Shown: positions 28,197 to 60,107 of the stretch, piece by piece
Position numbering within the stretch: position 1 is the stretch's first letter
Layout: the number at the start of each line of letters is the position of its first letter
Assembly (NCBI GenBank): GCA_022710725.1
Contig: JAKLGK010000001.1
Span: 113,010-177,009 of the forward strand
Direction: 5' to 3'
Source of the DNA: Verrucomicrobiota bacterium
GTDB taxonomy: Bacteria; Verrucomicrobiota; Kiritimatiellia; CAIQIC01; JAGNIJ01
DNA: 64,000 nucleotides
The notes under the pieces: model-generated
The model's database searches: none
What the model was told of the DNA's origin: nothing
Seen by the model: the letters and a program-made list of their open reading frames with translations, nothing else
Translations under genes and position numbers: made by a program

Positions 28197-28215
28197 GCCG
28201 CGGGCCACCCGCCGA

Positions 28216-30012: not shown

Positions 30013-30066
30013 GCGATCCGCCGAACGCTCATGGCCGCGCGGGGCCTGAAGCGCGGGGAAGACACG

Positions 30067-39314: not shown

Positions 39315-39411
39315 GGCGGCGTTGCTCCTTCTATCTGGGGGTTCTCCCCGCGACTACCGGCCGGTCAGGCCACGAGGGCTTCCGGCCGGGAACATGAAAA
39401 GCGCGGACAGT

Positions 39412-39882: not shown

Positions 39883-39885
39883 ACC

Positions 39886-41010: not shown

Positions 41011-41049
41011 TATGGACCAACGCCGCCGGCATGGCTAGCCCGCAGACGG

Positions 41050-41085
41050 CAAAAAAGAAGAGGCGGGCCGCCGCCGGCCCGCCTC
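41050..41085 (-). terminator. rho-independent terminator of the giant gene
   Basis: On the minus strand: GAGGCGGGCC-GGCGGC-GGCCCGCCTC followed by TTCTTTTTTG. It begins 25 nt after the stop at 41110 and separates the giant gene from the esterase gene. Confidence 0.7.
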
Positions 41086-41109
41086 GCGAACGCCACCCGG
41101 GGCCGCCCG

Positions 41110-44100
41110 CTACGGATTCATCAGGCGAGTGGGCAAGCTGTACGGCGGCACGTTGGTCCACGTCCACGGCGTGGTGGACCCGCGCGTCCAGATCAGGAAC
41201 CCGTCGTCCGGCGAGATGGTGAAGCCGGCCGCCGACGAGTTGTTGACGTATTCCCACCGCGAGCGCGTGGTGTTGTAATACACGTCAAAGCCGACGCCCT
41301 GTTGCTGCCGGTTGAGCTTGCGGATTCGGTCCGCGGACATCGAGCCTACGCCGCCCTTGAAACCGGAGGCCAGCAGGTTCATTTGAGCCGGGCTCATCGT
41401 GCAGGGCAGGCGCATGTTCACGAGGTTATACGCTCCGTTCGGCTGGATGACCTGCGTCTGGTTGTTCGTCGGCACCCGGCCGATGAACATGAGGAGATAG
41501 GTCTGCGTCTCGTTGGTCGGGATGTTGATGGCCACGCTCTCGTCGAACGGGAACGCATAGTGGTCGGCCACTTGGTTCATGCCGCCCCAGCCCTGGCCCG
41601 TGCGCCACTCGTTGGAGGAGCCCCAGTCCAGGAGGTAGACATCCTTCTGCACCGTCTCGTTGGTCAGGCGGCTGTACCAGGTCACGATCGTGCTGTGCGG
41701 ATCGGTGTACGCCGAGCCGCCCGGCAGGTAATGGCCCAGCACGTTCTTCAGCGTGTTGGAGTCCGGGACCACCGGCAGGCCGACCCAGTTCTGGCCGGGA
41801 TACAGCGTGACGGTCCGCAGGCCGTACACCTCCTCGCTGGCCACGCGCGGCGAGCGGTTGGTCATCCAGCGGTCCTTGGAGGCGGCGCGGTAGAAGCGCA
41901 TGTTGGAGGTCAGCAGCGTCGGCGCCGTGCGATTCAGACCGCCCGTGTCGGACAGCGAGTTGGTGAACCCGCTCTGCAGGAACTGCCACTGGTTGGACAT
42001 CCCGTCGTTGAAGCTGCTGCCGTCCACCCACAGCAGGTCGTACTCGCGGTTCACCCCGCCGGACTGGTTCGTCGCGGCCACCCAGAAGATCTCCGAGTAG
42101 CGGATGTCCCCGCTGGTGGCCTTGACCAGGCCCTGCGTGACGTTGAAGCCCGGGAGCACGATCACCACCTCGTCCGACAGCGGCCCCTCGTTGCCCGCCC
42201 GGTCGCGGCCGACGATGCGGAACTTGTAGTCGGAGCCGAAGATCAGGTTCGACAGGGTGACCGTCGAGACCGACATGTTCGTCAGGGCCGCCTGCCCCGT
42301 GTACCCGTCGAAGTAGGCGCTGCTCGTGGTCACGGTGGACCCGTCTTCGCTGAAGTAGATCCGGTACGAGTTCCACGGCGACAGCGTCGCGCCGTCCGGC
42401 CGGTTGCCGGCGTTGGCCGCGGCGGTCCAGTTCAACTCGACCTCCGTGGTCGGGTCCTCGCCCTCGTCCACCGTGATCCCCATGATCTGCGGCGGGGCGT
42501 GCTGGTCCAGCCGCGTGACGAAGTTGGTCGTCTCGCTCATCTGGCCGTCGAAGGCGCGGTCGTGGTCGGCGTCCACGGCGAAGAGCCGGTTGGTGATCTC
42601 GCCTTCGGCCACGCCGGTGATGATCCGGCTCACGGGCATCTCCGTGCCGTTGGTCAGCGAAGCGGGCGCGTTCGTGTCGTACCGGTAGTGCAGGATCCCG
42701 GACGCGTCGCTGGAATCGGTGAACGACAGCGTGAACGAGTTGGCGTTCGTCCAGTCGGTCGGGCTGACGCTCAACGCCGTGGGCGCGGTCGGCGCGTTGG
42801 TGTCGTCGTCGTACACCACCAGCCAGCCGGCGTTGAGGTTGGTGCGGGCCTGGTCGCCCGGCCGGTCGTTGTCCGAATCCAGCGCGTGCAGCACGATGGC
42901 GTTGCTGTGGCCGGCGGCATCCCAGAACTGGCCCACCTGGTTGGAGGTGAACGTGGTGAACGCCCAGTAGCTGGTCGCGTTCTGGGCGGCGATGCGGGTC
43001 TCGCCGATGGACGAACTCCAGCCCGAGCTGTAATTCGCGGTGTTGCTGGACACCACGGAGCCGATGCTGATGTGCGTGTTCGTCAGGGTGCGCCCGTCCG
43101 AAGTGGTCGTCGCGGTCGTATCGCGCTGCAGGCCCAGGACGTTGTCGTCGCCGAGGTCGTAGCTGTGGAAGCCGAGCATCAGCTGGCTCGATCCGGACAC
43201 CCCGGCCAGTTCGCCGTCGGACACGGCATACACCTGGTTGGACGCGTCTTCCGGGTGCGTGGAATAGGTCCACAGGTTGGACGTCGGGGCGCCGGGGCTC
43301 GGCCCGAGGAGCACGGTCAGCGCGTTCGTGTTCGCGGTCTGATTCGTCGGGAACTGCAGGATCGCCGGCGACGGGTCGTTGTCCTTCCAGGCGATGTACC
43401 CGACCTGGTAGGCCGTCAGCACCGAGGCGTCGTCCGGGCGGTCCTTGTCCGTGTCGGAGACGCTCACCGTGACCTTGCTCGTCGTGCCCACGAAGCTCAT
43501 GTCCCCGAACGAGGTGAAGACCCAGACGTTGGTCGCCGCGGGGTTGTTCGTCGTGCTGGCGCTGCTCGAGGCCAGGGAGAGGTAGGAGACATCGTTCGTG
43601 ATGAAGCCCTCGATGGTCAGGGTCAGGTTCGACAGGGCCTCCGTCCCGCTGCGGTGGTAGCCGCTCTCGTCGTACAGGTTGATGTGCAGGTACGGGGTGT
43701 TCGTGCTGCCCACGTTCTGCATCATGCGGTCGTTCAGGCTCCAGCGCCGGTTCGTCGAGACGCCCGCTGCCGAGGCGTTGGTCGTGCCCTGGTACAGCAC
43801 CATGGGCCCGTGCAGGTTCGGGTAATCGAACGGCTTGTCTTTCGTCATGCTCTGGAAGATCGTCCCGCCCACCGGCGGATTGGTGTCGTCGTCGATGACC
43901 GTCACGGCGATCTGCTGCGTGTACTGAAGGTTGTCGTCCGGCCGGTCGTTGTCGGCGTCCGCCGCGTACACGCTGGCGGTGTGCACGCCCAGCACGATGT
44001 TCGCGAACGCCACCGACAGGTTCGTCGCGTAGAGGTTCGCCCACTCGCCGATGGTCTGGCTGGCGTTGGTCGGGCCGATGTTGAACGGCTGCTGGTTGAA

Positions 44101-47100
44101 CAGCGAGGCGCCGGCCGGGGTCACCAGGTCGAACCGCGTCCCGTACGTCGGGTGGCGGTTGCTGTAGACGCCGCTGGTCGCGTCCGTGACGCGCGCGGTG
44201 ATCGACAGCGTGCCCTGGTTCAGGTCCTGGTCGCTGACCAGGCCGGAGCCCGGCAGCGGGGCCAGGCTGCCCTGCAGCCGCAGGTTGTCCACGCGCCACG
44301 ATCCGGTCGAGCCCGTCGCGTTCGTCGCGTGCAGGCGGAAGGTGACGGCGCCCTCCAGCGACGACAGGCTCAACGCCGTGCTGTTCGTCTTCCAGTTCGT
44401 GTCGGCGTGGTTGCCGCTGGCCAGGGCGGTCGCGTAGCTGTCGCCGCTGTACAGGAAGTACCAGTCGGTGGGGCCGGTGCTGGAGCGGTTGTCCATGAAC
44501 GTCAGGTTCGTCACCGTCAGCGCGTAGCCGGACTCCACCGTCAGCGTGAAGTCGAGGTACTGGTACGCCTGGTAGAACTTGCTGGTGACCGCGCAATAGC
44601 CCGGATTGCCCGTGCCCTGGTTGATGGCGTCCACGCCCCCGCCGAGGACCGCGCCGGCGGTGACATGGGCGACGACCGTGTCCGCGTTGGTCGTGAACGT
44701 GTACGTCGTTTCATCGACGGGGATGTCGAAGTCGTACAGCACCATCGTGCCGTTCTCGGTCAGCCCGGCGCCCGTACCGAGGGCCGTCAGGTTCGTGAAC
44801 AGCGGCGCGTCGGCGTCGTCGTCGGTGACGGCCACCGGCATGGCCAGCGAGCCGTCCTGGTTGTCGTTGAGCCGGTCGAAGTCGAAGTCCGTGACGTAGA
44901 CCACCGCGCTGTACGTGCCGATGTTGATGTAGTTCCACATGCCCGTGGATGCCGTCCGCGTCAGGGCCTGGGTCGTCACGGGCACCCCGTTCGGGAAACC
45001 CACCGACATCGCGTTGGACAGCGCCATGTCGCCGTCCGCGTTATACAGCAGGAAGTGCGGCGCGCTCGCGTAGGCGTTGTTCGTGGCCAGCAGGCCGGAG
45101 GTGTAGTCGGACACCACGTCCACCACCGTGTACTGGCCCGTGGACACCTGCGCGTCCGTCAGGTTCGGCGTCTGCCACTCCATGCCGCCCTGGCTGGTGA
45201 CGCTGAACGCGAAGTTACTGAAATTCAGATCCGTTGCGCTAGCCGCCACCTGCCAGTTGTTGGAGTCGCTGATTGAGGCGAGCAACTCGGAGGACGAGCC
45301 GGTCAGCCTCCCCGTGTAGATAATATTGACCGACTCGGCACCGCCCACGCTGACGGCGGTCACGCCGTTCGTCAAACCACGGTACAGGGCCGAGCACAAG
45401 TTGTTGGTCGGAACGATCGGCAGGTACCACCCGTCCGCCTGTGGCGCGGTGTTCGTGCCGAGCATGTTGACGGCGTACAGGAACGTGACGCGGTCCGGAT
45501 CGTTGGAGGCGTTGACCGAGCCGTTGTACTGGTACACGGTGACCTGGTCGCCGCCCGAGTTGATGTCCTGCAAGCCCAGTTCGAACACCTGCCCGACGTC
45601 CGCGTCGCCCGTCGCGATCCACAGGTTCGTGTGGAACTCGGTCACGCGGTGCCAGTTGGTCCCCGCGTTGTCCGCCCAGCCGCAGTCGGTGAAGTGGACG
45701 ATCGTCCCCGCCGGGAACGGGGCCAGGACCACGAAGGCGAACTTCTCGATCTTGGCGCTGGGCGAGCCGTTGACGCCGACGACGGCGATGTTGCCGGGCA
45801 GCAGGTTGGTGCTGCCGTACCCGCCGACGCCGTCGATGGTGAACTGGGTATGGCTCGGGGCGACCGAGTCGTCGTCCGTGACCTGGAGGTAGCCGAAGAC
45901 GACGTTGGAGGCCACGCTCGCGTCGTCGGTCCGGTCGTGGTCGGTGTCGCGCAGCGTCAGCATCACCGGGTTGGTTTCGCCGGCGGAGCCCGACCCGTCG
46001 CCGGCCCAGAGGGCCGTCATGTCGCTGAAGGCCAGCGAGTCCCAGTGCCAGGCCAGGACCGTGTTGGTCTCGGTCGTGTCGCCCACCGTGCTGCGGCTGG
46101 CGCTGTAGTTGGCGATGTTGTTGGTCTGCCAGCTCGAGGAACCGACGGAGAGCGAGGTGTTCGTGTCCGCGGAGCCCGCGGCGCTCAACTGCAGGCCGCT
46201 GTAGTAGTCGTAGGCGTTGAACAGCAGCGTCAGCGGCGTGCCGGTCATGCCGCCGTCCGTGCCCGTGTAGATCACGGACTGGCCGGAGCCCGAGGCGGTC
46301 AGCAGGGCCGTGGCGTTGGACGCCAGGAGCGTACGGCTGCTCGCCCACTGCGCGCCGTAGGCGAACGTCGGCACGTCGTCGTCGTCGTCCGTGACGTTGA
46401 TCCGGATCAGCTCGTTCGTGCTGACGTTGCGCGCCGTGTTGGGCCCGTCCTCGCAGTAGCCGCCGTAGGTGGCGGCCGGCGCCCCGTAGCTGTTCCACGA
46501 GCCATACGCCGCCCAGCTCCCGTTCTCGGTGCACCCGTCCTCCGAGCTGACGGTCAGGTAGTACTCGATCGTCTCGTCATAGCCGCTGATGGTGAAGGCG
46601 TTGTGCACCCAGGCCGTGATGCTCGGCGAGGAGTTCCCCGCCGACGAGGCGATGTTGCTGCCGTAAAACACCGCGTCGTAACCCAGTTCGTTGGAGGAGC
46701 CGTCCGAATAGAGGCGGAACACGTCCCAGTTCGGCGACACGCGGCCGTCGTCGGAGACGATGTTCCACGTGAAGTTACTGGGCGCAGGCCCGCTGTTGTT
46801 CTGCCTGTTCGTCGCGTACACGCCGCTCGGGTCCTCGATCTTGATGGCGAACCCGATCGCGTTGACCGCCTGCTGGATCTCGGCGTCGGTGATGGACTGG
46901 ATCGGCCCGTACTTGTCGATGTGCGCGTCGAAATCCCCGGCTAGATAGCCCGTCAGGTTGGTGCCGATGTACAGCAGGGTGTGCAACGGCCCCGTGATGT
47001 CGCCCTTGCCGCCGATGCGGAACATCTGGATCTGGCCGCTGGAGAGCGCGCCGGCCGTGTCGCGCGCCCGGACGCGCCACCAGTACTGCGTCGCCGACGT

Positions 47101-50100
47101 GGAGAGGGTGTAGTTCGTCTGGGTCGCCGGCAGGTTCACGCGGAGGAAGATCGAGCCGTTCTCCGTCGTGCCGCTCTCGCCGTTCAACGTTTCGTTCGTC
47201 CCGACCTCCAGGAAGTAGCCGGTGACCTGGCCGTCGCTGTCGGTCGAGGCGTTCCACCACAGCGTCGGGTTGGCGGTCGCGGCATAGTTGTTGGTCGGGA
47301 AGCCGACCGCCGGCGTGCTCGGGATCGAGTTGGCCACCACGCCGTTGGCGTCAAAGACGACGTCGAACCAGAAGTCGATGCTGTTGTCGCTGATGTCCTC
47401 CTGCCAAGCCGACTGCGAGAGGTCGCCGTCGTTGACCTGCTCCGGCGCGATGGAGGCCGCGTCGGCGGCGTCCGGCGTGCCCGCGAGGATCTGGACCGTG
47501 CCGTCGCCCGAGTTGTTCCACAGGTCGTTGTTCAGGAAGCTGGCGACCGTGAACCGGGCCGTGACGGGGCTGCTGACCAGCAGGTCGGAGCGGTTGATCC
47601 AGAACTCCATGGCGTTGTTCGCCGCGCTGGCCGCCGCCGCCGAGCCGGCCGGCGGGCCGTACCAGGTGCCGCCGTCGTCGGCGTACACTTCCACCTGCAT
47701 GGCGCCGTCGGCGCGGTGCACCGTGATGTTGCGCTGCGCGTAGTGCACGGCGGCCTGGCCACCGGCGAAGTAATTGCCGCCGTAGAAGGTCCCGGAGTCG
47801 TCGCCGATCCAGTTCATCGCGCCGCTCGCCGAGGACCGCCGCGTGTCCAGGCCGATGTTGATGTACGGGTGCTGGTCGGACGTGACGTCCCCGTACTTCA
47901 CCAGGAAGTAGACGTTGGTCGTGTCCGCGTAGATGCGGACCTCGCGGATGTCCGCGTTGGTCGTGTTGGCCACGTCCTTGCGCTCCTCGCCGCACTTGTC
48001 CTTCCAGATGAACTCGTTACGCGACACGGTCGACGCGTTGTAGGTGGAGCCCGCCGTGCCCTGCCAGTCCGCCGGGTTGCCGTCCACCACGATGGCCTGG
48101 CTGCCGCCCAGGGTCGAGGCGCTGTCCACCGTGCCGGTCGAGTAGTAGCTGTAGTTCTCGGAGTAGAACCGGTAGTAGTACGTCTGGGAGGACGCCAGGC
48201 CGGTGTCGTCGAAGCTGGACGCGTTGCCGCGGTAGACCACCGTGTCCGAGCCGAGCGTTTCGCCCGCGTAGTAGGCCGTGCCCGGCGTCGGCGCGGTGAA
48301 GCTGCCCGACGTGTTCCGGACGATCATCACGTCGTGGCCCACCGTGTTCTTGGTCCACGCCAGGTTGATCTGGCTGTTGGTGTTGACCGAGTCGCGCGTG
48401 GCCGAGACGGGATTCGGGTTGACCAGGGCATTGACCGTCAAGCTGCCGGACGGATTGGTGCTGATGACGCTGCAGCTCCCGCCGTAGGCGAGGTACACGA
48501 AGTCGTGCACGCCGGTCTTGGTCATCTGCGCGCTGTAGCTCCACCAGCTGTTGTTATTGTGGTTCGACGACCAGGCCATCGAGTAGGTCGAGGTGGTCTG
48601 GTCGGTCCAGCGGATCTGCAGGTCCGCGCTCTGGCCGGAGCCGATCGGGTAGGTCTGGCACTCGAACGTCAGCGAATTGCCGAGGTTCGTCACCGCCACC
48701 GGCACGTTGTTGCTGCCGATCCACGTGGGGCAGGTGACGCCGACCAGCTGCGACCAGTTCGTCGCCAGCCGGATCTCGTCGAAGTACACGTCGCCGATGC
48801 TCCCGCAGTCCGGGTTCAAGGCGCCGACGTTCAGCCGGATGCGGTCCACGGAATCGATGCCCGTGCCCAGCGTCCGGGTAACGTCCCAGCTCGTCGGCTC
48901 GCTGCTCGGGAACTCCGTCGCCGTCGGCAGGTTGTACGCGTTGGCCTGCAGATTCTTCGTGCTGAAGTCGTACTTGCCCAGCACGAGGTAGACGCTGCCC
49001 GTGTGCGCCTCGGCGCCGCCGCCGTACGGCCGCAGATCGTAGCCGGACCACGCGGTTCCGCCGTCGCCCGCCACCCCCAGGGTGTACCAGTTGGCGCCGC
49101 TGGCCTTGCCGAAGAACGCCTTCTCGGTCGCGCCGTTGTAGAAGCTCAACCCGGCCCACTTGTTCGAGCCGTAGTACTGGTAGGCCATCATGAAGGCGAC
49201 GTAGATCTGGCCGGAGTTGATCGCCGCGCCCAGGCTGCGCTCGGCGTAGCCGCTCGAGCCGTTGCCGAGGCCGGTGATCCGCATCAGGTTGCCCGCCATG
49301 TCCGTGTAGCCCTCGATGTTCACGAAGCGCGGGATCGCCGCGGCCTCGGCCGTAGGCGAGTTGGTCCGGATGCCCCAGCTGCCGCTGACCGCCCAGTAGT
49401 TGTCCCCGAAGCCCTTGCCGCCTTTCGTCGCGGTGCCCGGGGCCGTCGCGTTGGTATACGAGAACGGGTTGACGATCTCGTAGCTCTGGTAGCTCCCCAT
49501 CGTCACGTTCGCCGTCAGGCCCGTGGAGTAGTAGTTGACGGCGTTGTACGAGTAGAATTGGTAATACGCGCTCGACCCGTCCGCCACGACGTGCTCCAGC
49601 GTGTCCCCCGTGCCCTTGTAGATGACCGTCGCGCCGTCGATCGTGTCGTTCAGGCTGTAGGTCGTGCCGTCCGTCGGGTCGGTCGAGATGGCGCTGGTCT
49701 TGTACAGGATCATGACGCCGTTGCCGGCGCCGTTCTTCTCCCAGCCCAGCCGCACCATCTCGTTGCCGTCCGCCGTCGCCGACGCGCTCACCGGGTCTTC
49801 CGGTTTCGACGGGACCACGGCCAGCAGCTCGGACCAGTTCGTCGCTACGCGGACCTCGTCGAAGTACACCACGCCCGGCGTGCCGTACCCCTCCGACGCC
49901 CCGGCCCGCAGGCTGATGCCGTCGATCTGCGTGACGCCGCCGACGTTTAGGTACTCCGCGTCCCACGAGCCCGGCTCGCTGTCCGGCACGGAGTCGGCCC
50001 CGATCTTGTACGCCGACGCGTGGGCGTCGTCCGTCGAGAAGTCGTACCGCATGATAATGACGTAGTCGTTGCCGGAGCCGTAATCCAGCTTCTTGGTGCT

Positions 50101-53100: not shown

Positions 53101-56100
53101 GAGGTTGGTGACCATGTACCAACCGGCGCCGTCCCCCTCCGCCGGCATATTCGACACGGTGACGGCGTTCCACGCCGTTCCGCTATTGGTGGACCACTCC
53201 AGGTTGAACGTCGCGTTGTTGCCCGCGGCTTCCTTGCGGTACCCGAAGTTCAACTGGAGATAGGCGTAGCCCGTCGAGTCGATCCCGGCGATGCTGAACC
53301 CGTAGTCGCCGGACGTGGAGGTGTGGTAGACGTTGGCCGCGTCGGAGGCCGCGTTGCCGGCCGGGTCGGTGTACCCGCTGGACGAGCTGGTGGCCCGGAG
53401 ATCCGCCGGGCTCGCGGCGCCGCCGTCGGACATGGTGTACCCGTCGTTATCAAAGCCGTTGGCCGATTCGTGCGACGCTATGGTCGTCGTGCCGCCGACC
53501 GTGCCCATGGTCTCGCGGAACACCGTTGTGGTCGTGCCGCCGCCCGAGCTGAAGTCCGAACTCGTGGCCACGTCCAGCCGGTAGCCCGTGGCGCCGGAGA
53601 CGGCGTTCCAGTTGGCCCAGAAGTTGGCAGTGGTCCAGTTCGTCGCCGCCGTGGCGATCGGCGCGGCACAGAGGGTCAGGGCCGTGTTGGTCGTCGAGTA
53701 GACGCTGATGCCGCCGCTGTCCTGGGCGCGCAGCCGCCAGTAGTAGGTCGTCGCCGCAGTCAGGCCCGTGACGCTGAAGGTCGTCACGTCGCCGATCACG
53801 CGGGCCGAGTAGCCGTTGACGAAGCCGGCGAACGTCGAGGACGCGGAGGCGTCGAGCAGGTAGTTCGTCGCCCCCGTCGCCGCGCTCCAGTTGGCGGAGA
53901 AGCTGGCGACCGCCAGGTCCGACGCCGCGCTCAAGACCGGCGCGTCGGGCACGGTCCAGAAGGAGCCGTCGGCCGAGTAGGCCTTGCCCTGCGTGTTGCT
54001 GGCCCAGCCGCGGAAGTAGATTAGCGTGCCCGCGGGCAGGCCGCTGCGCGCGTGCGAGAAGACGCCCGTCGCCGTGCCGCCCTCGCTCGCTTCGTTGGCC
54101 GTCGGCGTCGCCGAGGTGTCCCACACCGTGCCGCGCGAGCCGAGCGCCACGCCGCCGTTGGTCGAGATCTCCGCGCCCAGCGTCGCGCCGTTGGCCGTGA
54201 CCGAGGCGTAGGTCGGGTTGATCACCGTCGGCGCGGCCTGGCTGGCGCGCCGGCCCGGCTCGCCGCTGGCCTGGAAGTCGCCCCGGCTGGCGCTCGTGTT
54301 GTTCGTCGCCCGCACCCAGTAGTAGTACTGCTGGCCCGCCGTGGCGCTCGTGTCGTCGTAGTTCGTCGTGCCCGCCGTGACGCTGGCCAGGAAGGAGGCC
54401 GAGCCGGAAGCGTCGGAGGTGTGCCGCCAGATCCCGTAGCTCGTTTCGCCCGCCAGGTCACCCCACTGCAGCGCCACCCGGTCGGAGTACAGGTCGTCGC
54501 TGGCCACGACGTTCGAGACGATCATGAGCTTCCGGTAGCCGCTGTCGGAGGCGCTGAAATCGCTCTGGCTGGAGGTCACGTTGTTCGTCGCCCGCACCCA
54601 GTAGTAGTAGAGCTGGCCGAAGTCGGCCGTGGCGTCGTCGTAGCCCGTGGCGTCCGCGGCCGCGCTGCCCAGGAACGTCGCGCTCCCGGAATCGTCCGCC
54701 GTGTGGCGCCAGATCCCGTAGCTCGTCTCGCCCGCGCCGTCCGTCCAGGCGACGGCCACCTGCACGGTGGAGGCGCCGTCCCCGGCCGTCACCCCGCCGA
54801 CCGTCGCCAGCTTCCGGTAGCCGGCCGAGCCGCTGGCCTGGAAGTCGCTCTGGCTCGAGCTCGTGTTGTTCGTCGCACGCACCCAGTAGTAGTACTGCTC
54901 GCCCGCCGTCGCCGATGTGTCGTTGTACGTCGTCGAACCCGCCGCCACGCTGGCGACGAACGACGCCCCGCCCGAGGCGTCCGCGGTGTTCCGGTAGATC
55001 GCGTAGCTCGTCTCGCCCGAGATGTCCGTCCAGTCCACCTGCACGTGCGCCGTGCTCGTGCCGTCCGACGCCCCCGTCACCGACACCGTCGCCATCTTCC
55101 GGTAACCGCTGTCCGACGTGCTCTCCGCGCTCGAGCCGGCCGGGTTCGTCGCCGTGACCCAGTAGTAGTAGAGCTGGCCCGCGGTCGCCCCGGTGTCGTT
55201 GTAGGTGAGGGTGTTCGCCGCGTTGGTGTAGATCGCCGTCGAGCTGGCGAAGGTGTCGACCGTGTTGCGCCACAGGACGAAGCCGGTCTCGCTGGAGACG
55301 TCGTTCCAGCTGTTGCTGACGTGCGCCGTGGAGCTGCCGTCCGAGGCCGCGAGGCCGGTCGGCGCCGCGGGCGCCACCTGGCTCGTCGTCACCGTCTGCG
55401 TCGTGGAGTCGGCGCTGACGCACGACCCGCCGCCCACCGCCCGCACGCGGTAGTAATACGCCGTGTCCGCCGTCAGCCCCGTCACCACCTGGCTCACCGC
55501 CGAGACGGAACGGTTGGAGAAGCCGGGGACGAAGCTGGAGCCGCCGCCCAAAGAGGTGACGATGATATCGTGCACGTAAACGGCGCCGGAAGGCTCCGAC
55601 AGACGTAATTCGACGCTCGAATTGGCGTCGTTCACGTAGTTCGAAAACACGGCGCCCGTGGTCGTGGGGTCGAAGGTGGTGACATCCGTCCAGCCCCCGC
55701 CGTTGACGTTCTTCTGGAGCTTGATCGTGCGGCTCGCGCCGGCATCCAGATGAAAGACCGCCGACCCGACGGTATTGAGGGCCGGCAAGGCCAGGATGCC
55801 ATTGGCGGCTTTCAATTGGACTCGCCCCACGGTGCAAGGCCCATCGGCGGAAGCGCTGGGCTGGATGATGCAACGGGTCATCGTGACCGTGCCGGCCGCG
55901 ATGATCTCCGTATACGAACCATAACTGGCTTGAGCCGTCCAACTCTGGATGTTCTCCGAAACCAGCGTGCTCGGCGCCCCGCCGCCGAATGTTCCGTTCG
56001 TGGCGACGTCCAGCTGGTAGCTGGCCGCGCCGCCGAGGGCGGTCCAGTTGGCGGTGAAGTTGGTGGAGCTGATGGCGCTGCCCGCCGCGCTGGTCGGCGC

Positions 56101-59100
56101 GACCTGGAAGCAGTCGGCCACGAAATTCGACTCGTCGCCGTATCCGGTGGGCGAGGCCTCGCTGTTCTGGGCGAAGGCGCGGACGTAGTAGGTCTGGCCC
56201 GGGGTCAGGCCGGTGATGTCGCTGTAGAAGATGCCGGTGCCGGTGCCGTTGGTCGTCCGGGCGTCGGCAATGGTCGGCGTGCCGCCGGTGTTCCAGCACA
56301 CGCCGCGGTTGGTGACGGCGGAGCCGCCCTGCAGGCTGATGTTGCCGCCGCTCTTGATGCTGGTCGGCAGGCTGTTGCTGAACGCGGCCGTGGTCAGCGT
56401 CGGCGGCCCGCCCGCCGGCGTGAAGGTCAGGACCAGGCACCCGCCGCTGGCGGCCAGCGAGAACCCGCCGCCGCCCAAACCCAGGCTCCACGCGCTGCTC
56501 GAGTCCAGGCTGAAATTCGCGGCGGACGAGATGCCGCCGCCGATCAGCACCCAGGAGTACGCGTTCGCGTTGTTGAAGTTCGACGTCACGTCGTCGTCGA
56601 TGACAATCGTCGTCGTCGCGTTGATCGTCGCCGTGCCGGTGCTGTTGGTCACGTAGTCGCGGTCGAGCGTATCGGAGCAGTTCCCGATCTGGAAGACCGC
56701 CTTCGAGCCGTTGTTCATCGTCAGCGAGGACACGAGCAGGCGCCCGATGGCGTTCGACGTCGCGCCCGGGTACATCGTGCCGGCCACGGTCAAGCCGCCC
56801 ACGCTGCCGGAGCCCGTCAGCGTGCCCGCGGCGTTGACCGTGATGGCGGAGCTGGTGTTCGTGCCGTTCATGATCAGCGTGCCGGCGCTGACCGTCGTCG
56901 CGCCGCTATAGCTGCTGGCGCCGGTGAGCTTCAGCGTGCCGGTCAGGAGCTTGTTCAGCGTGTTCCCGCCGCTGATCGCCCCGCTCAAGGTCAGCATGTC
57001 CAGCGACACGCCGATGGACGTCGCGGCGTTCAGCGAGATCGTGCCGGACACCGTGTTGTTGCCCGCGACGTTGCGCAGCGCGCCGAACAGGCCGCCGCCG
57101 GTGCCGCTCAACACCAGGTTCTCCGCCGAGGTGATGTTGTTGGTCAGCTCCAGCCGCCCGCCGCTGGCGACCGTGGTGCTGCCCGCCGAGGTGCCCAGGC
57201 CGTTGTTGTGCGCGATCCGGATCGTGCCCGCGTCGATCACGGTCCCGCCGCTGTAGCTGTTGTTGTTGGTGAACAGCACCATCCCGGCGCCCCGGTTCGT
57301 CACGTAGCCGGTGCCGCTGATGACGCCGAGGTAGTTCGTGTCGTCCGTGCGGTAGAACGCGAGGGCCGAGTTGTTGACGATGCTGGCGGCCGTCACGGCG
57401 CCGGCCGTGCCGTTGGCGCCGAGCTGCACCGCGCCCGCGCTGATCGTCAGCGCGCCGCTGAACGTGTTGTAGCCGGTCAGGGTCAGCAGGCCCGCCCCGT
57501 CCTTGGTCACGGTCCCCGCCCCGGTCCCGATGGCGCTGCTGACCACGATGTTCGAGGCGCCGCCGAAGGTGAGGTTGTAGCCGCTGCCGGAAATGGCCGT
57601 CGCGGAGTTCAGCGTCAGGATGCCCGAGTCGGAATTGATCCGCACGCCCGTGCTCTGCAGCGTGATCGCGCCGGCGAAGGTGTTGTTGCCGCTGATGTTC
57701 CGCAGCGCGCCGCCGCTGGCGATGCCCGTGCCGTTCAGGAACAGCGGCTCCGCCGCCGTCGTGATCCCGCCCGCCAGCTCCAGCGCGCTGGCGGTCGAGT
57801 TGGCGACGTAGGTGTTCCCGCCCGTTCCGCCCAGGCCGTTCGCGTTCGTCACCCGCACCACGCCCTGCGTGATGGAGAGGTTGCCGCTGAAGGTGTTGTT
57901 GCCCGCCAGGATCAGCGTGCCCTTTCCGATGTTCGTCCAGGCCGCCGAGTTCTGGATCACGCCGTTGACCGTCGCCGTGCTGTCCGGCGCCACCCAGATC
58001 CGCGGGCCGGCGGTGGTTCCCAGCTCGATGGTCCGGTTCGCGTGCAACGTGAAGACGTTCGTGAAGCCCAGCGTGCCCGTGCTCCAGACGTTGATCTTCT
58101 CCCCCGCGCCGCCCGGCACCGGGCCCGCCGCCAGGTCCGCCCCGAACGCCAGGATGCCCGCCGTAATGTGCGCCACGCCCGAGTTGGTGTTGAACCCCGT
58201 CAGCGTCAGCATTCCCGACTCCACTTTCTGCCAGTTCGCCGTCCCCACCATGCTGCCGCCGTAGCTCACCGCGTTCCCGCTGGTCACGCCCAGCTTCGGC
58301 GTGGCCACGTCCCCCAGCCGTATGCCGCGGTTGGCGTTCAGGGCGAAGGATCCCGTGAACTGCAGCGTGCCGCTCGACCAGACCTCGAAGTGGTTGGTCA
58401 CCAGCGAGGCGGGCGCCGCGCCGAAGCACAGGTCCGCCGAGCCCTGCAGGATGCCGTTTTCCGCCGCCGAACCGCCCGTGTAGGTGTTGGTCGTGCAGCC
58501 CAGCGTGATCGTGCCCGTGCCGATCTTGTAGAGGCGGTTGGCCGTCGTGCCCGACGCGCAGGCCGCGCCCAGGCCGTCCGTGATCAGGCCGTTGATCGTG
58601 GACGTGCCGTTGCCCCCGCCGAACTCCACCGCGCCGGTGTCTCGCACGGTGGCCGTCTGCTTCCAGTAGGAGTTCTGGCGGTTGTCACCCCAGTCCCACT
58701 GGTACCGCCGGTCGTCATTCAGGAAGATCGAGTAGGCGTCGATGCGGGCCGACGTCGCCGGCGAACCCGCCATCGTCCAGTCGTATTTCGTCTTCCCGTT
58801 CAGGTCCACGTTGAACGTCGAGCTGGAGGTGATCTTGACCTTGACCGTGTAGTTTGCCGCCGACGAGCCCGCGGGCGTGTTCGTGAAGGATTCCCCCGCC
58901 CCGCTGCCGATCGCGTACCACGACCCGATGCCCCCGCCCGACCCGTAGTTCCCGCCGTCCTGACGGACGGACAGTCGCGACCCGCTGACCCGGTTCGCCC
59001 ACGGCGTGCCGGTCGAGCCGCCGTCGTTCAGCGACACGCCGATCTCGCCGTAGTAGCAGCCGTAGCTGTACACGGTGATGCTGAACTCGTCGCCCACCTG

Positions 59101-59880
59101 CAGCTCGCGCGCGGAGGAGGTCGTCGCGCTGGCCGTGCGGAACGTCTTCCAAGCCACCGTGTAGCCCTGGTCGCCGCCCGCCCACATGCCCAGTTCGGTG
59201 CTCCCCCCCGTGTCGAACGTGCCGGCGCCGCTATCCCACCGCGTGTCGTACTGGCTCTGCTGCTGGAGATTCGTGACCGCGGAGAGGTTCTCGCAGGTGT
59301 TCATCTTGTACAGCTCAACATACGTTGAGGCGCTGGAATAGGCGGCAAACCGGGGCGAGCTCGAGTTGTACTGCAGTTTGCGCGCAGACGCGGCGCCCAC
59401 ATTTTGAATCAAGAACCGGCTGGACGCAGTGGTGGCGAACGTCCAGTGCCAGATTGTCGCAGAGCTGGCGGAAGCGGATCTGATCATGCCGTTGGCGGCG
59501 GGGGCGCCGATGTAGATGCTGCCAGCCTCATTGTAGATGCCATAGCTGCTCGAAACCGCATCGATTCTCCACACGCGCCCGACGGCCGGGTCCACAATGG
59601 CGCTGGCGGTGATGGTGACCGCCTGGGCGGAGAGGGCTGCCGTGGATACCGTCGCGAGCGCCGAAGACGCCATCGCGTTGGCGGTGCCGCCGCCGACGAA
59701 GACGTAGTAGCCGCCGGAGGTGATGTCGGCCGTGGACGTGATCAGGGTGAACGTCCCCGACCCGGAGTAGGCGGCCTCGGACCGCATCGGCGCGAGGCAC
59801 CAGGCCGCCGCTGCGATCGCCAGCGCCAACGGCCGCCAGCCGCGCCGGGCGACAGGCTTCGACATCGTTTCATGCTTCAT
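41110..59880 (-). CDS. giant secreted Ser/Thr/Gly/Asn-rich surface protein (6256 aa): signal peptide, PATR (autotransporter-associated beta-strand) repeats, FN3-like arrays, large internal repeats, D-x-D-x-D-R modules
   Basis: It is a single uninterrupted ORF, and I counted all 6256 residues. The N-terminal 'MKHETMSKPVARRGWRPLALAIAAAAWCLAPMRSEAAY' is a signal peptide. Residues ~440-1160 are PATR repeats such as 'GTLILAGNNTFSGNLSITQGVVRV' and 'GMVLFTNNNSYSGGTVIDAGTIRI'. FN3-like modules recur with '...TYYYRVRA / YYYWVRATN'. A GGAGGAG RBS lies 8 nt before the ATG at 59880. Confidence 0.85.
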   Translation of the reverse strand: MKHETMSKPVARRGWRPLALAIAAAAWCLAPMRSEAAYSGSGTFTLITSTADITSGGYYVFVGGGTANAMASSALATVSTAALSAQAVTITASAIVDPAVGRVWRIDAVSSSYGIYNEAGSIYIGAPAANGMIRSASASSATIWHWTFATTASSRFLIQNVGAASARKLQYNSSSPRFAAYSSASTYVELYKMNTCENLSAVTNLQQQSQYDTRWDSGAGTFDTGGSTELGMWAGGDQGYTVAWKTFRTASATTSSARELQVGDEFSITVYSYGCYYGEIGVSLNDGGSTGTPWANRVSGSRLSVRQDGGNYGSGGGIGSWYAIGSGAGESFTNTPAGSSAANYTVKVKITSSSTFNVDLNGKTKYDWTMAGSPATSARIDAYSIFLNDDRRYQWDWGDNRQNSYWKQTATVRDTGAVEFGGGNGTSTINGLITDGLGAACASGTTANRLYKIGTGTITLGCTTNTYTGGSAAENGILQGSADLCFGAAPASLVTNHFEVWSSGTLQFTGSFALNANRGIRLGDVATPKLGVTSGNAVSYGGSMVGTANWQKVESGMLTLTGFNTNSGVAHITAGILAFGADLAAGPVPGGAGEKINVWSTGTLGFTNVFTLHANRTIELGTTAGPRIWVAPDSTATVNGVIQNSAAWTNIGKGTLILAGNNTFSGNLSITQGVVRVTNANGLGGTGGNTYVANSTASALELAGGITTAAEPLFLNGTGIASGGALRNISGNNTFAGAITLQSTGVRINSDSGILTLNSATAISGSGYNLTFGGASNIVVSSAIGTGAGTVTKDGAGLLTLTGYNTFSGALTISAGAVQLGANGTAGAVTAASIVNNSALAFYRTDDTNYLGVISGTGYVTNRGAGMVLFTNNNSYSGGTVIDAGTIRIAHNNGLGTSAGSTTVASGGRLELTNNITSAENLVLSGTGGGLFGALRNVAGNNTVSGTISLNAATSIGVSLDMLTLSGAISGGNTLNKLLTGTLKLTGASSYSGATTVSAGTLIMNGTNTSSAITVNAAGTLTGSGSVGGLTVAGTMYPGATSNAIGRLLVSSLTMNNGSKAVFQIGNCSDTLDRDYVTNSTGTATINATTTIVIDDDVTSNFNNANAYSWVLIGGGISSAANFSLDSSSAWSLGLGGGGFSLAASGGCLVLTFTPAGGPPTLTTAAFSNSLPTSIKSGGNISLQGGSAVTNRGVCWNTGGTPTIADARTTNGTGTGIFYSDITGLTPGQTYYVRAFAQNSEASPTGYGDESNFVADCFQVAPTSAAGSAISSTNFTANWTALGGAASYQLDVATNGTFGGGAPSTLVSENIQSWTAQASYGSYTEIIAAGTVTMTRCIIQPSASADGPCTVGRVQLKAANGILALPALNTVGSAVFHLDAGASRTIKLQKNVNGGGWTDVTTFDPTTTGAVFSNYVNDANSSVELRLSEPSGAVYVHDIIVTSLGGGSSFVPGFSNRSVSAVSQVVTGLTADTAYYYRVRAVGGGSCVSADSTTQTVTTSQVAPAAPTGLAASDGSSTAHVSNSWNDVSSETGFVLWRNTVDTFASSTAIYTNAANTLTYNDTGATAGQLYYYWVTATNPAGSSAESTSDSGYRKMATVSVTGASDGTSTAHVQVDWTDISGETSYAIYRNTADASGGASFVASVAAGSTTYNDTSATAGEQYYYWVRATNNTSSSQSDFQASGSAGYRKLATVGGVTAGDGASTVQVAVAWTDGAGETSYGIWRHTADDSGSATFLGSAAADATGYDDATADFGQLYYYWVRATNNVTSSQSDFSASDSGYRKLMIVSNVVASDDLYSDRVALQWGDLAGETSYGIWRHTSDASGSASFLASVTAGTTNYDDTSATAGQQYYYWVRATNNTSASRGDFQASGEPGRRASQAAPTVINPTYASVTANGATLGAEISTNGGVALGSRGTVWDTSATPTANEASEGGTATGVFSHARSGLPAGTLIYFRGWASNTQGKAYSADGSFWTVPDAPVLSAASDLAVASFSANWSAATGATNYLLDASASSTFAGFVNGYSARVIGDVTTFSVTGLTAATTYYWRLRAQDSGGISVYSTTNTALTLCAAPIATAATNWTTANFWANWNAVSGATGYRLDVATSSDFSSGGGTTTTVFRETMGTVGGTTTIASHESANGFDNDGYTMSDGGAASPADLRATSSSSGYTDPAGNAASDAANVYHTSTSGDYGFSIAGIDSTGYAYLQLNFGYRKEAAGNNATFNLEWSTNSGTAWNAVTVSNMPAEGDGAGWYMVTNLGLAAEAISANLSLRWVKTGGTAMRVDDVLLRGISAGDSYVPGYSNRSVSATTELVTNLAAGATYYYRVRAENASGASSNSNVITAYTLSAEPAGHAGSFAAAAASASTINLSWTAASAPVDGYLILRRQGADPTGTPTDGTNYALATVFGDATLVNIVTGGAETGTTVSNLTASTQYNFSIVPFNADGGQWQTYNYLTAATIPTANATTFAAEPSANPTAVAFTLITATSFQIGWSGGDGANSIVVVKQGSAVDSNPADGMGYTNNAAFGSGTQLGTGNYVVYIGSGTSVVMSALTAGVTYHVAIYEFNGDDGLQNYRTSDPRTGSQAPLDTPAVTTFAISNNIPGSAVSGGNVTDEKGATVTRRGVCWSTSNPPTIADPCTTNGSGLGEFSATMANLTPGQTYYVRAYATNTIGAGYGYVVTNVASCFTNGPIGLYANPTNFADFTANWSALAGATGYQLDVYQGSTVAALLIDEAFDGGTTPPGGWTFTAIGGTYSSDGNYGRGSPSLQMDATGDAVETPTLGGSPTGVTIWVKGNGTDASSSLLVEGYAGSWSTVSTIMPLPTTGENTNMPLSGSVTKLRFTYTKSAGNLAFDDVIVGGTSNAIAYATGYSNVAVSATSNAVTGLTEGGVYYYRVRGTNTLCTSVNSATGTVTLKSHPGIGVGAALAVYGVVGSTPTSHTFAVTNIGGGALSYVLSTNAAWLTVRPLTGSSLANGASKVHTNFFVATGLSAGTYYGTNTVTNTGAGNDAATNSPQVVQAVLVLTNIPDPSVATATADGKTLMDLAWTKNATYDVMIVHRPGAASTAPTQGTTYNIGDSCGSGTVIYKGSGSSLEHMVASGTEHHYAFYSVNNNHYSAGLTDSETTEQFAAQEIVDTFSYTNGTTLANCAGSNDWSGAWSGNTGWVTNHAGSFSGQTNYPTPTGNKIVMVPSNNAGLYVSRSFAARTSGKVYAAFIMNFTWDGAQKWAGASLMHGATEKIFFGECWGASATLGVHNAVSTKKLDYGSGNDYVIIMRYDFSTDDAHASAYKIGADSVPDSEPGSWDAEYLNVGGVTQIDGISLRAGASEGYGTPGVVYFDEVRVATNWSELLAVVPSKPEDPVSASATADGNEMVRLGWEKNGAGNGVMILYKTSAISTDPTDGTTYSLNDTIDGATVIYKGTGDTLEHVVADGSSAYYQFYSYNAVNYYSTGLTANVTMGSYQSYEIVNPFSYTNATAPGTATKGGKGFGDNYWAVSGSWGIRTNSPTAEAAAIPRFVNIEGYTDMAGNLMRITGLGNGSSGYAERSLGAAINSGQIYVAFMMAYQYYGSNKWAGLSFYNGATEKAFFGKASGANWYTLGVAGDGGTAWSGYDLRPYGGGAEAHTGSVYLVLGKYDFSTKNLQANAYNLPTATEFPSSEPTSWDVTRTLGTGIDSVDRIRLNVGALNPDCGSIGDVYFDEIRLATNWSQLVGVTCPTWIGSNNVPVAVTNLGNSLTFECQTYPIGSGQSADLQIRWTDQTTSTYSMAWSSNHNNNSWWSYSAQMTKTGVHDFVYLAYGGSCSVISTNPSGSLTVNALVNPNPVSATRDSVNTNSQINLAWTKNTVGHDVMIVRNTSGSFTAPTPGTAYYAGETLGSDTVVYRGNASSFDDTGLASSQTYYYRFYSENYSYYSTGTVDSASTLGGSQAIVVDGNPADWQGTAGSTYNASTVSRNEFIWKDKCGEERKDVANTTNADIREVRIYADTTNVYFLVKYGDVTSDQHPYINIGLDTRRSSASGAMNWIGDDSGTFYGGNYFAGGQAAVHYAQRNITVHRADGAMQVEVYADDGGTWYGPPAGSAAAASAANNAMEFWINRSDLLVSSPVTARFTVASFLNNDLWNNSGDGTVQILAGTPDAADAASIAPEQVNDGDLSQSAWQEDISDNSIDFWFDVVFDANGVVANSIPSTPAVGFPTNNYAATANPTLWWNASTDSDGQVTGYFLEVGTNETLNGESGTTENGSIFLRVNLPATQTNYTLSTSATQYWWRVRARDTAGALSSGQIQMFRIGGKGDITGPLHTLLYIGTNLTGYLAGDFDAHIDKYGPIQSITDAEIQQAVNAIGFAIKIEDPSGVYATNRQNNSGPAPSNFTWNIVSDDGRVSPNWDVFRLYSDGSSNELGYDAVFYGSNIASSAGNSSPSITAWVHNAFTISGYDETIEYYLTVSSEDGCTENGSWAAYGSWNSYGAPAATYGGYCEDGPNTARNVSTNELIRINVTDDDDDVPTFAYGAQWASSRTLLASNATALLTASGSGQSVIYTGTDGGMTGTPLTLLFNAYDYYSGLQLSAAGSADTNTSLSVGSSSWQTNNIANYSASRSTVGDTTETNTVLAWHWDSLAFSDMTALWAGDGSGSAGETNPVMLTLRDTDHDRTDDASVASNVVFGYLQVTDDDSVAPSHTQFTIDGVGGYGSTNLLPGNIAVVGVNGSPSAKIEKFAFVVLAPFPAGTIVHFTDCGWADNAGTNWHRVTEFHTNLWIATGDADVGQVFELGLQDINSGGDQVTVYQYNGSVNASNDPDRVTFLYAVNMLGTNTAPQADGWYLPIVPTNNLCSALYRGLTNGVTAVSVGGAESVNIIYTGRLTGSSSELLASISDSNNWQVAASATDLNFSNFAFSVTSQGGMEWQTPNLTDAQVSTGQYTVVDVVSDYTSGLLATNNAYASAPHFLLYNADGDMALSNAMSVGFPNGVPVTTQALTRTASTGMWNYINIGTYSAVVYVTDFDFDRLNDNQDGSLAMPVAVTDDDADAPLFTNLTALGTGAGLTENGTMVLYDFDIPVDETTYTFTTNADTVVAHVTAGAVLGGGVDAINQGTGNPGYCAVTSKFYQAYQYLDFTLTVESGYALTVTNLTFMDNRSSTGPTDWYFLYSGDSYATALASGNHADTNWKTNSTALSLSSLEGAVTFRLHATNATGSTGSWRVDNLRLQGSLAPLPGSGLVSDQDLNQGTLSITARVTDATSGVYSNRHPTYGTRFDLVTPAGASLFNQQPFNIGPTNASQTIGEWANLYATNLSVAFANIVLGVHTASVYAADADNDRPDDNLQYTQQIAVTVIDDDTNPPVGGTIFQSMTKDKPFDYPNLHGPMVLYQGTTNASAAGVSTNRRWSLNDRMMQNVGSTNTPYLHINLYDESGYHRSGTEALSNLTLTIEGFITNDVSYLSLASSSASTTNNPAATNVWVFTSFGDMSFVGTTSKVTVSVSDTDKDRPDDASVLTAYQVGYIAWKDNDPSPAILQFPTNQTANTNALTVLLGPSPGAPTSNLWTYSTHPEDASNQVYAVSDGELAGVSGSSQLMLGFHSYDLGDDNVLGLQRDTTATTTSDGRTLTNTHISIGSVVSSNTANYSSGWSSSIGETRIAAQNATSYWAFTTFTSNQVGQFWDAAGHSNAIVLHALDSDNDRPGDQARTNLNAGWLVVYDDDTNAPTAPTALSVSPTDWTNANSFTLSFTDSSDASGILHYRYDTNAPASLTNGTEMPVSRIITGVAEGEITNRLFAVDADHDRAFDGQMSETTNFVTRLDQHAPPQIMGITVDEGEDPTTEVELNWTAAANAGNRPDGATLSPWNSYRIYFSEDGSTVTTSSAYFDGYTGQAALTNMSVSTVTLSNLIFGSDYKFRIVGRDRAGNEGPLSDEVVIVLPGFNVTQGLVKATSGDIRYSEIFWVAATNQSGGVNREYDLLWVDGSSFNDGMSNQWQFLQSGFTNSLSDTGGLNRTAPTLLTSNMRFYRAASKDRWMTNRSPRVASEEVYGLRTVTLYPGQNWVGLPVVPDSNTLKNVLGHYLPGGSAYTDPHSTIVTWYSRLTNETVQKDVYLLDWGSSNEWRTGQGWGGMNQVADHYAFPFDESVAINIPTNETQTYLLMFIGRVPTNNQTQVIQPNGAYNLVNMRLPCTMSPAQMNLLASGFKGGVGSMSADRIRKLNRQQQGVGFDVYYNTTRSRWEYVNNSSAAGFTISPDDGFLIWTRGSTTPWTWTNVPPYSLPTRLMNP

Positions 59881-60077
59881 GGCTTTTCACTCCTCCGGGC
59901 TCGCGAACGCCCGTCGCCCCCTTGGACTAGAACAACGGCTTCCGGTCCATTTCCGGCTGATCAACTCATCGGCTCTTTTCCTGACAGAAATACATTACCG
60001 TCCCCATAAGGAGACAGCTCACGCATAAAGGAGTTCTCCCTGCCGATCCGAGGGAAATCCCTTTTTTACTTACTAGT

Positions 60078-60107
60078 ATTAATACCTAGAATGCCGTTGG
60101 GCGTCAA
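60078..60107 (-). promoter_or_regulatory. near-consensus sigma70 promoter (TTGACG-17 bp-TATTAAT) in an AT-rich island, driving the giant gene
   Basis: The minus strand reads ccaTTGACGcccaacggcattctaggTATTAATactag. The -35 is at 60102-60107 and the -10 at 60078-60084. A local AT-rich stretch lies at 60061-60095 in an otherwise ~70% GC context. The implied 5' UTR is ~190 nt. Confidence 0.5.

Follow-up and report, generated by a model that had tools for sequence, protein, structure and literature searches.

We analysed a 64,000-nucleotide stretch of a Verrucomicrobiota bacterium of the class Kiritimatiellia (GenBank assembly GCA_022710725.1, contig JAKLGK010000001.1, positions 113,010 to 177,009; the whole stretch is called the window below) and found that it encodes an intact protein of 6,256 amino acids whose last ~350 residues form a C-terminal domain (CTD). 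The giant gene is one of hundreds that lack a recognised secretion or anchoring signal and share this one conserved terminal domain, and comparison of the family sequences indicates that the CTD behaves as a portable, conserved and nearly always terminal module. We infer both location and function, and consider it fairly probable (roughly 0.6) that the protein is a giant, non-enzymatic, modular cell-surface fibre of adhesin-like type, exported by the Sec pathway, in which the CTD would be a module for anchoring or sorting that is specific to the lineage. What is new here is the CTD family, together with the numerous orphan modules of the protein; the annotation based on PATR repeats and the giant size of proteins in the Planctomycetes–Verrucomicrobia–Chlamydiae (PVC) bacteria are already known.

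The C-terminal domain and its family

An exhaustive search with the CTD profile against 1.84e9 cluster representatives gave 411 clusters at E<=1e-3, of which 243 pass E<=1e-30, and when the last 1,656 residues were used as the query, five relatives only were retrieved from 5.8 billion proteins, all with the same ending. In nearly all of the 150 listed CTD matches, the match ends at the last residues of the protein. Lengths and tails were tallied from 152 listed representatives, and the sharing of regions from 154 family proteins. The hosts are long (at least 3,000 amino acids in 77, at least 5,000 in 38 and at least 6,000 in 22, with the longest at 7,684), and signal-peptide-like N-termini are present in 58 of 77 full-length members. 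One peptide pattern alone located 59 CTD loci in GTDB species genomes, with up to 3 loci per metagenome-assembled genome (MAG), and all of these MAGs are labelled Kiritimatiellia, Verrucomicrobiota, Lentisphaerae, Opitutia or Spartobacteria. The canonical tail stands directly at the stop codon in 51 of the 59 loci, while the other 8 have an extra 130–370 amino acids. The addition is a conserved domain of ~130 residues in L011, L016, L019, L022, L023, L030 and L060 and reaches 368 residues in L024; it ends in 'EYNGTG..NYLT...', and the otherwise terminal tail is internal in these proteins.

Family members are marked by the RFYR, PGxNW, VPTN and PDD motifs and by a tail of the form P(T/G)(K/R)N(M/F)xP or LPTRWMGx. 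Type A tails, WTN..(L/P)Y..P(T/G)(K/R)N(M/F)xP-COOH, have a terminal proline in 113 of 113 cases, and type B tails read FYxLPTRWMG(E/Q/N). The window protein ends in WTWTNVPPYSLPTRLMNP-COOH (...PYSLPTRLMNP-COOH), is of type A and falls within the family as so defined, its CTD being matched by the family hidden Markov model (HMM) with an E-value of 4e-132. Neither Pfam (2025 copy) nor NCBIfam (2026) nor PDB contains the family, and our literature searches found no paper on it or on the orphan modules. A first-pass annotation, made by a model from the DNA letters, had described a C-terminal domain of 350 residues and unknown type; the domain indeed matches no known family, but that annotation missed that it is a conserved, family-defining module.

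Conservation is uneven along the protein. Among the 154 family proteins, the CTD is shared by 143–147 and the preceding FN3 domain by 114; the blocks at residues 3000–3700, 4300–4700 and 5200–5700 are common to ~60, and residues 1–200 are found in only 2. The distance from the last DxDxDR motif to the C-terminus is ~505 residues across the family (interquartile range 485–596), and this fixed spacing suggests that the conserved terminal unit consists of the DxDxDR module, FN3 and CTD. The passengers of divergent members are unrelated, comprising either 6–10 DUF11 repeats and Gly_rich_2 or 17 SdrD_B repeats and domains of the SpaA type, as compared to PATR and FN3 here. For example, only ~9% (~370 residues, about the size of the CTD) of P0115 (4,098 amino acids) aligns to the window protein. 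The closest CTD relatives, P0007 (2,647 amino acids, MBP7830351.1) and P0008 (6,221 amino acids, MBP7830352.1), have CTDs 64–66% identical to that of the window; their consecutive accessions on a single contig of 54.9 kb make it probable that these two giant genes with a CTD stand in tandem in a related Kiritimatiellia MAG.

AlphaFold gave a mean confidence (pLDDT) of 43 for the CTD with an alignment of 4 sequences, and 88.6, with a predicted template-modelling (TM) score (pTM) of 0.86, with 30 family sequences from databases. The latter model is all-beta with short strands, of soluble type and without a membrane barrel, and its final ~12 residues, which bear the conserved tail, are unstructured. 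Foldseek found nothing for this model in PDB at E<=1e-3 (TM <=0.22) and one match in BFVD at that threshold (E 3.6e-4, TM 0.17). Within the terminal 250 residues, hhalign detected a weak signal of a tandem duplication, now diverged, of a ~120-residue unit (E 5e-4, probability 30%). On the basis of the model, we provisionally describe the CTD as an extra FN3-like unit of ~100 residues, the one part with a known fold, followed by ~250 residues without a solved counterpart, and the latter as a provisional new fold, judged on the comparison of the whole CTD model with PDB and BFVD.

The giant gene and the architecture of its product

The giant gene is real, intact and maintained. The exact protein is in GenBank under an automatic name (HSA16857.1, 'autotransporter-associated beta strand repeat-containing protein [Kiritimatiellia bacterium]') and occurs in identical form on 5 contigs, the longest of 547 kb. 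A second variant of 6,256 amino acids, HRZ11592.1, is encoded in an independent metagenome assembly (ENA ERZ795054, 521-kb contig, locus L062) by a gene of the same 18,771 nucleotides, with 10 substitutions relative to the window (7 synonymous and 3 non-synonymous) and no indels; the 3-kb flank upstream is identical between the two. The same length and the absence of indels in an independent assembly indicate that the gene is neither a pseudogene nor a misassembly. DNA repeats inside the gene reach at most 85% identity over 78–225 nucleotides, which makes assembly collapse unlikely. A pseudogene remnant or a chimeric, repeat-driven misassembly might be imagined for a very long, repetitive, metagenome-assembled gene, the more so because a homologous locus, L002, is broken into several open reading frames (ORFs); it has a negligible probability given these agreements, the G+C content at third codon positions (GC3) of 0.956 along the whole ORF, whose antisense stop-free ORFs shadow a GC3-rich frame, and the retention of the modules at the protein level in many other clusters. 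The claims of the first-pass annotation that the ORF is uninterrupted and the gene functional are therefore upheld, with position, strand, length and start all reproduced, and the alternative assembly, in which frameshifts or stops would by its own account have refuted them, has the gene at full length.

The three residues that differ between the two assemblies (A341G, N343D and I350V) cluster in a span of 10 residues inside the N-terminal head, possibly a variation hotspot at the putative binding end, for which the counts are too small to interpret. At L002 (3340–15158 of a JGI contig), the homologous giant gene lies in pieces comprising two PATR fragments, a 1,134-residue ORF and a 1,773-residue ORF (P0001); the breakage may come from frameshifts, assembly errors or a decaying copy, and the locus adjoins a sulfatase gene cluster.

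Since the window has a G+C content of ~68%, long stop-free frames arise in it by chance. The giant ORF is translated without an internal stop, and its G+C at the three codon positions (0.53, 0.54 and 0.956) follows the pattern of the other real genes of the window, which settles the coding frame. Very long stop-free ORFs also run antisense to it, e.g., 39265–45276 (plus strand, 2,003 amino acids), 50020–54024 (plus) and 55750–59328 (plus). They are artefacts of a GC3 of ~96% in the giant gene and could mislead gene callers.

The N-terminus has a basic n-region, a hydrophobic h-region and an AxA-like site, the layout of a signal peptidase I substrate, and a homologous cleavage site (AHA followed by AYSGSG) is present in family protein P0009. 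As judged from this layout, the protein carries a Sec-type N-terminal signal peptide, and no hydrophobic segment was found outside it in the 6,256 residues. The credible signal peptide, strong ribosome-binding site and own terminator of the first-pass annotation were all recovered (Table 1), while its own promoter was not: a sigma-70 consensus scan of the 473-bp upstream spacer made no call on the coding strand, and the candidate in Table 1 was matched by eye alone.

Table 1. Features of the giant gene and its product (positions in the window; all on the minus strand)
Feature	Residues	Position	Strand	Basis or remark
Candidate promoter TTGACG-17-TATTAA		~60079..60107	minus	match by eye alone
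Shine-Dalgarno-like GGAGGAG		59890..59896	minus	9 nt 5' of ATG; sequence reading
Complete ORF, 6256 codons + stop	1-6256	41110..59880	minus	ATG start; protein identical to GenBank HSA16857.1
Signal peptide, predicted cleavage between SEA and AY	1-36	59773..59880	minus	N-terminus MKHETMSKPVARRGWRPLALAIAAAAWCLAPMRSEA, then AYSG
N-terminal 'head', orphan domain	37-408	58657..59772	minus	no Pfam match at E<=10
PATR / TIGR02601 beta-strand repeat stalk, ~8 repeats	~409-1150	56431..58656	minus	Pfam, NCBIfam, self-comparison
'RGVCW...PTIAD...GQTYYVRA' module, copy 1	1160-1297	55990..56403	minus	motif scan, self-comparison
RGVCW module, copy 2	1884-2019	53824-54231	minus	motif scan, self-comparison
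RGVCW module, copy 3	2593-2728	51697-52104	minus	motif scan, self-comparison
Four tandem FN3 modules	1501-1880	54241..55380	minus	Pfam and self-comparison; 53-60% identical
BACON/ASH-like Ig module	~2920-3010	50851..51123	minus	weak match, BACON_2 E 0.009
Two ~340-aa paralogous blocks	3013-3355 and 3346-3715	48736..50844	minus	self-comparison, ~40% identity
Third copy, FN3-like first ~120 aa of paralogous block only	3814-3933	48082..48441	minus	self-comparison
Orphan module	3925-4195	47296..48108	minus	conserved in ~20 loci
Orphan module	4290-4500	46381..47013	minus	common to >50 family proteins
Six-module D-x-D-x-D-R region	~4500-5790	42511..46383	minus	motif scans, self-comparison
'FAFVVLAPFPAGT..FTDCGW' orphan domain, inside D-x-D-x-D-R region	4672-4900	45181-45867	minus	homology searches
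Final Pfam fn3 domain	~5797-5905	42166..42492	minus	Pfam
First CTD sub-domain, FN3-like by structure only	~5912-6005	41866..42147	minus	predicted structure
Terminal ~250-aa all-beta CTD part	6006-6256	41113..41865	minus	no structural or sequence counterpart found
Intrinsic terminator, 11-bp stem (10 G-C pairs), then T-run TTCTTTTTTG		41060..41085	minus	terminator scan

Behind the head, for which only 2 homologs exist among 5.8e9 proteins, the body of the protein is the PATR stalk joined to several dozen modules of beta-sandwich type, some FN3, some Ig-like and many of them orphans specific to the family. The stalk, ~12% of the protein, is supported by 5 stretches matching Pfam PF12951 (68.5 bits against a cut-off of 27), by 4 matching TIGR02601 (75.8 bits against 19.85), and by 8 'N(T/S)(Y/F)(S/T)G' cores found by motif scan at residues 465–989. 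The three RGVCW modules are mutually 34–50% identical. Each paralogous block is made of an FN3-like unit and a ~220-residue orphan beta domain with YFDE(V/I)R(V/L)ATNW at its end, and the blocks are among the regions common to ~60 of the 154 family proteins; the orphan part has no PDB or Pfam match, even with a profile built from its alignment. Thus, the PATR stalk, the FN3-like and GVCW modules and the final FN3 domain of the first-pass annotation all reappear, and of its three large paralogous repeats, two stand as proposed and the third is limited to the first ~120 residues.

Six D-x-D-x-D-R motifs lie at residues 4645, 4998, 5308, 5476, 5668 and 5770, as the same annotation had described, against 0.06 expected from shuffles. 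In five of the six cases, V-x-D-D-D-x-x-x-P follows after ~20 residues, giving a two-part acidic signature at module ends. The composition is rich in T, A, G, S and N and acidic (487 D+E against 269 K+R).

The HMM searches that the first-pass annotation called for recognise only PATR/TIGR02601, scattered fn3 and a weak BACON-like Ig module. For about half of the protein, Pfam (E<=10), NCBIfam and PDB sequences offer no match, profiles included; the matchless stretches are the head (37–408), 3125–3355, 3925–4195, 4290–4670, 4672–4900, 5030–5210 and the CTD. When eight orphan modules were isolated and compared with Pfam at E<=10, one weak match only was obtained (Reelin_subrepeat-B, residues 2110–2300), and profiles of three orphan modules (A4, A5 and A6) had no match among PDB sequences. 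Pfam and NCBIfam detected no enzyme domain in the giant protein.

Surface-fibre model and competing explanations

In the arrangement that we propose, the protein would be exported by Sec and cleaved by signal peptidase I at about residue 36, would cross the outer membrane by a route outside the recognised ones, and would attach to the surface through the conserved C-terminal unit (DxDxDR module, FN3 and CTD), with the CTD as the part that, in this lineage, anchors or sorts surface fibres. Because the base is conserved and the head variable, the C-terminus is placed proximally and the N-terminus distally, so that the PATR stalk and the rare, variable head may project outward as the binding end. 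The DxDxDR ... V.DDD...P motifs are reminiscent of the cadherin interdomain Ca2+ sites (DxNDNxP) and DxDxDG loops. By this analogy, they probably bind Ca2+ and might stiffen the proximal stalk. In guts, sediments and digesters, Kiritimatiellia are abundant as anaerobes that degrade polysaccharides, and in view of this lifestyle of the phylum, polysaccharides or other cells would be the likely ligands.

Several points weigh against this proposal. Surface location, expression, Ca2+ binding and ligand are all putative. No translocator or sortase-like partner is conserved beside the 59 family loci or the window gene, so the anchoring or sorting machinery is hypothetical. Clustering of the ORFs downstream of the 59 loci yielded only synteny within ortholog groups, at no more than 12 of them and never including the window, and the neighbours of the window gene do not recur near CTD family loci; a conserved partner gene was therefore dropped as a candidate. 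The orientation is read from the conservation pattern only, and type I secretion system (T1SS) adhesins have the opposite one. All passengers examined are structural repeats without an enzyme, so the CTD could be an integral part of the fibre rather than a general sorting tag. Finally, the statement that the CTD has no known fold is provisional and model-based.

A more specific form of the proposal, which we regard as a tentative idea, more doubtful than not, sees the CTD and the near-invariant peptide exposed at its C-terminus as tagging cargo for an undescribed pathway of outer-membrane translocation and/or covalent surface attachment, specific to Kiritimatiellia and related PVC bacteria. 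With the same reserve, it might be a functional analogue of the CTD/PorU system of type IX secretion (T9SS), serving a repertoire of giant surface fibres. The T9SS cargo of Bacteroidota resembles the CTD proteins in the Sec signal, variable passengers, a folded all-beta terminal CTD, several paralogs per genome and restriction to one lineage. The differences are that the window CTD has no match to Por_Secre_tail/TIGR04183 (Pfam at E<=10 on the CTD, NCBIfam at E<=0.01), that it measures ~350 residues as compared to ~80–100 in T9SS, that it comes from the PVC and not the Fibrobacteres–Chlorobi–Bacteroidetes (FCB) group, and that no enzymes are among the passengers examined here; no PorK/L/M/N, SprA or PorU/V gene lies within the window. 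By analogy, a conserved base with a variable tip, paralogs, lineage restriction and an exposed invariant peptide follow the logic of T9SS cargo and autotransporters, with membership in neither.

The main rival, which we rate as unlikely, takes the CTD not as an anchor but as the functional end of the fibre, for ligand binding or for self-association and polymerisation. The protein would then be released, for example, by type II secretion, or held by its N-terminus, and would form the scaffold of a biofilm or an extracellular matrix. The CTD as modelled, a beta domain of soluble type whose conserved tail is exposed, would suit such a role, as would passengers that are all structural repeats and the lack of both an anchoring signal of a known kind and conserved neighbouring machinery. 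However, the binding tips of adhesins are usually their most variable part, whereas here the C-terminal unit is the most conserved and the head the most variable; the same CTD also sits on three unrelated passenger types, and several paralogs with it occur per genome.

Export in the manner of a type V autotransporter, with the C-terminal ~250 residues as a divergent outer-membrane beta-barrel exporting the PATR passenger, is suggested by the Sec signal peptide, the PATR repeats, the conserved C-terminal domain and the GenBank name, and is largely refuted and very improbable. The isolated CTD has no Pfam match to the autotransporter barrel (PF03797), outer-membrane protein (OMP) or POTRA families even at E<=10, and no NCBIfam match; its terminal residue is a proline and not the aromatic residue of a beta-signal; and the PATR stalk is N-terminal, ~4,700 residues away from the C-terminal domain. 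Classical autotransporters and the other PATR proteins of PVC bacteria (TIGR02601/PF12951) are similar in the signal peptide, a stalk scoring above thresholds and the name, and differ in that the giant protein has no C-terminal beta-barrel translocator, has its PATR repeats near the N-terminus and ends in a soluble-type beta domain. The first-pass annotation had likewise recognised no C-terminal barrel and had left the secretion and anchoring route unassigned, which agrees with our searches.

Also very improbable is a giant RTX/Bap-like adhesin (LapA, SiiE or MpIBP type) that leaves the cell by the type I route, its secretion signal being C-terminal and its retention module N-terminal. In favour of this reading are the size of the protein, its Ig-like modules in tandem, its acidic motifs of putative Ca2+-binding type and its conserved C-terminus; it conflicts with the cleavable-type Sec signal peptide, with the complete lack of GGxGxD nonapeptide repeats and of a Pfam HemolysinCabind match, with the absence of ATP-binding cassette (ABC), membrane fusion protein (MFP) and TolC genes from the 64-kb window and from beside the homologs, and with a C-terminal domain modelled as a folded 350-residue unit rather than an unstructured signal. 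More generally, giant Ca2+-dependent adhesins (cadherin-like, LapA, SiiE and MpIBP) resemble the protein in their several thousand residues, their chains of Ig/FN3-like modules and their acidic motifs at module ends. They differ from it in that no Cadherin, Cadherin-like, Big, VCBS or RTX model matches, that arginine replaces the glycine of DxDxDG, and that it carries a Sec signal and lacks both a retention module and T1SS genes; the likeness to cadherins is thus at the motif level only.

Other signals were also searched for. The protein has no PEP-CTERM or LPXTG arrangement of sorting motif, transmembrane helix and basic tail, and no NCBIfam match to one; its sole LPxTG-like string is internal, at residue 2824, and no lipobox ([LVI][ASTVI][GAS]C) was found at the end of the signal peptide. 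The first-pass annotation had taken the composition as consistent with an S-layer-like fibre or a heavily glycosylated adhesin. The former finds no supporting match. The latter was dropped, as N-x-S/T sequons number 116 against ~96 expected from composition (only 1.2x), together with the upstream 730-residue protein with membrane and TPR regions as a PMT/TMTC-like glycosyltransferase for the giant protein, since it matches no glycosyltransferase family.

Genomic surroundings and significance

The giant gene lies in ordinary core chromosome, and its taxon follows from the NusA of the window, which is 93–94% identical to that of 'Kiritimatiellae bacterium' MAGs. Downstream on the same strand are a CBM20 esterase, small unknown ORFs, MazG, nusA, infB, truB and ribF, and elsewhere in the window are prfA, ppk1, a ROK kinase, an SLT transglycosylase and a double CoA-activase. 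No secretion-system genes, tRNAs or Rfam elements were found in the 64 kb. The esterase, with an N-terminal CBM20 starch-binding domain (39886–41010, minus), lies directly past the terminator of the giant gene; a 47%-identical esterase is ~5 kb downstream of the CTD gene at L054, the only other family locus to have such an esterase.

Three proteins that look like paralogs and carry TPR repeats at their C-termini are encoded at 60354–62546, 63285–63902 (towards the window end) and 30067–32037, all on the minus strand, the first two in tandem just upstream of the giant gene. The 730-residue member has an N-terminal multi-pass membrane region and a run of 13 serines; family matches of these paralogs are confined to their TPR parts, with no glycosyltransferase or other assignment. 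Between the two tandem paralogs, 62543–63034 (minus) encodes a 163-residue protein with a very acidic tail (EDENEDEEEDENE), and in the identical flank at L062, the 163-residue protein is annotated as PF05635, the 23S rRNA intervening-sequence protein family. ORFs 24954–28793 (minus, 1,279 amino acids) and 28216–30066 (minus, 616 amino acids) have a coding-type GC3 and fall where the G+C content of the window is highest (0.72–0.73). At 2146–5421 (minus), a 1,091-residue fusion combines two BcrAD_BadFG/CoA-activase ATPase domains with DUF2229 and is followed by a 413-residue ORF with a faint DUF2229 match. A 285-residue protein with Ca2+-binding repeats of the bacterial thrombospondin type-3 family (TSP3_bac) is encoded directly downstream of the homolog P0002 (L001, 9344–10201); it may be linked in theme to the acidic DxDxDR motifs, and it is absent from the window.

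In PVC phyla, proteins of 5,000–10,000 amino acids or more are frequent, and published work on such giants centres on Omnitrophota and related groups, whose proteins above 30,000 amino acids bear dockerin domains, peptidase domains or transmembrane anchors (West-Roberts et al. 2023, bioRxiv 10.1101/2023.11.21.568195; PMC12057145). The window protein is similar to these in being a very large, predicted extracellular PVC protein for which adhesion or cell-cell interaction is proposed; Kiritimatiellia are absent from that text, and the CTD family is not described there. Since extracellular proteins of giant size are familiar from PVC bacteria, size alone is unremarkable, and the place among the largest bacterial proteins that the first-pass annotation gave to this one is overstated, with 22 of the 152 listed CTD proteins reaching at least 6,000 residues.

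To our knowledge, almost nothing has been reported on the cell surface of Kiritimatiellia. If the CTD is only a structural end-piece, the protein would be an ordinary giant adhesin with many orphan modules. If the CTD is an anchor or sorting tag, it would offer a handle on the missing outer-membrane machinery of the phylum and a simple route to an inventory of its surface fibres, and would add a new protein family, probably with a new fold, to the databases.

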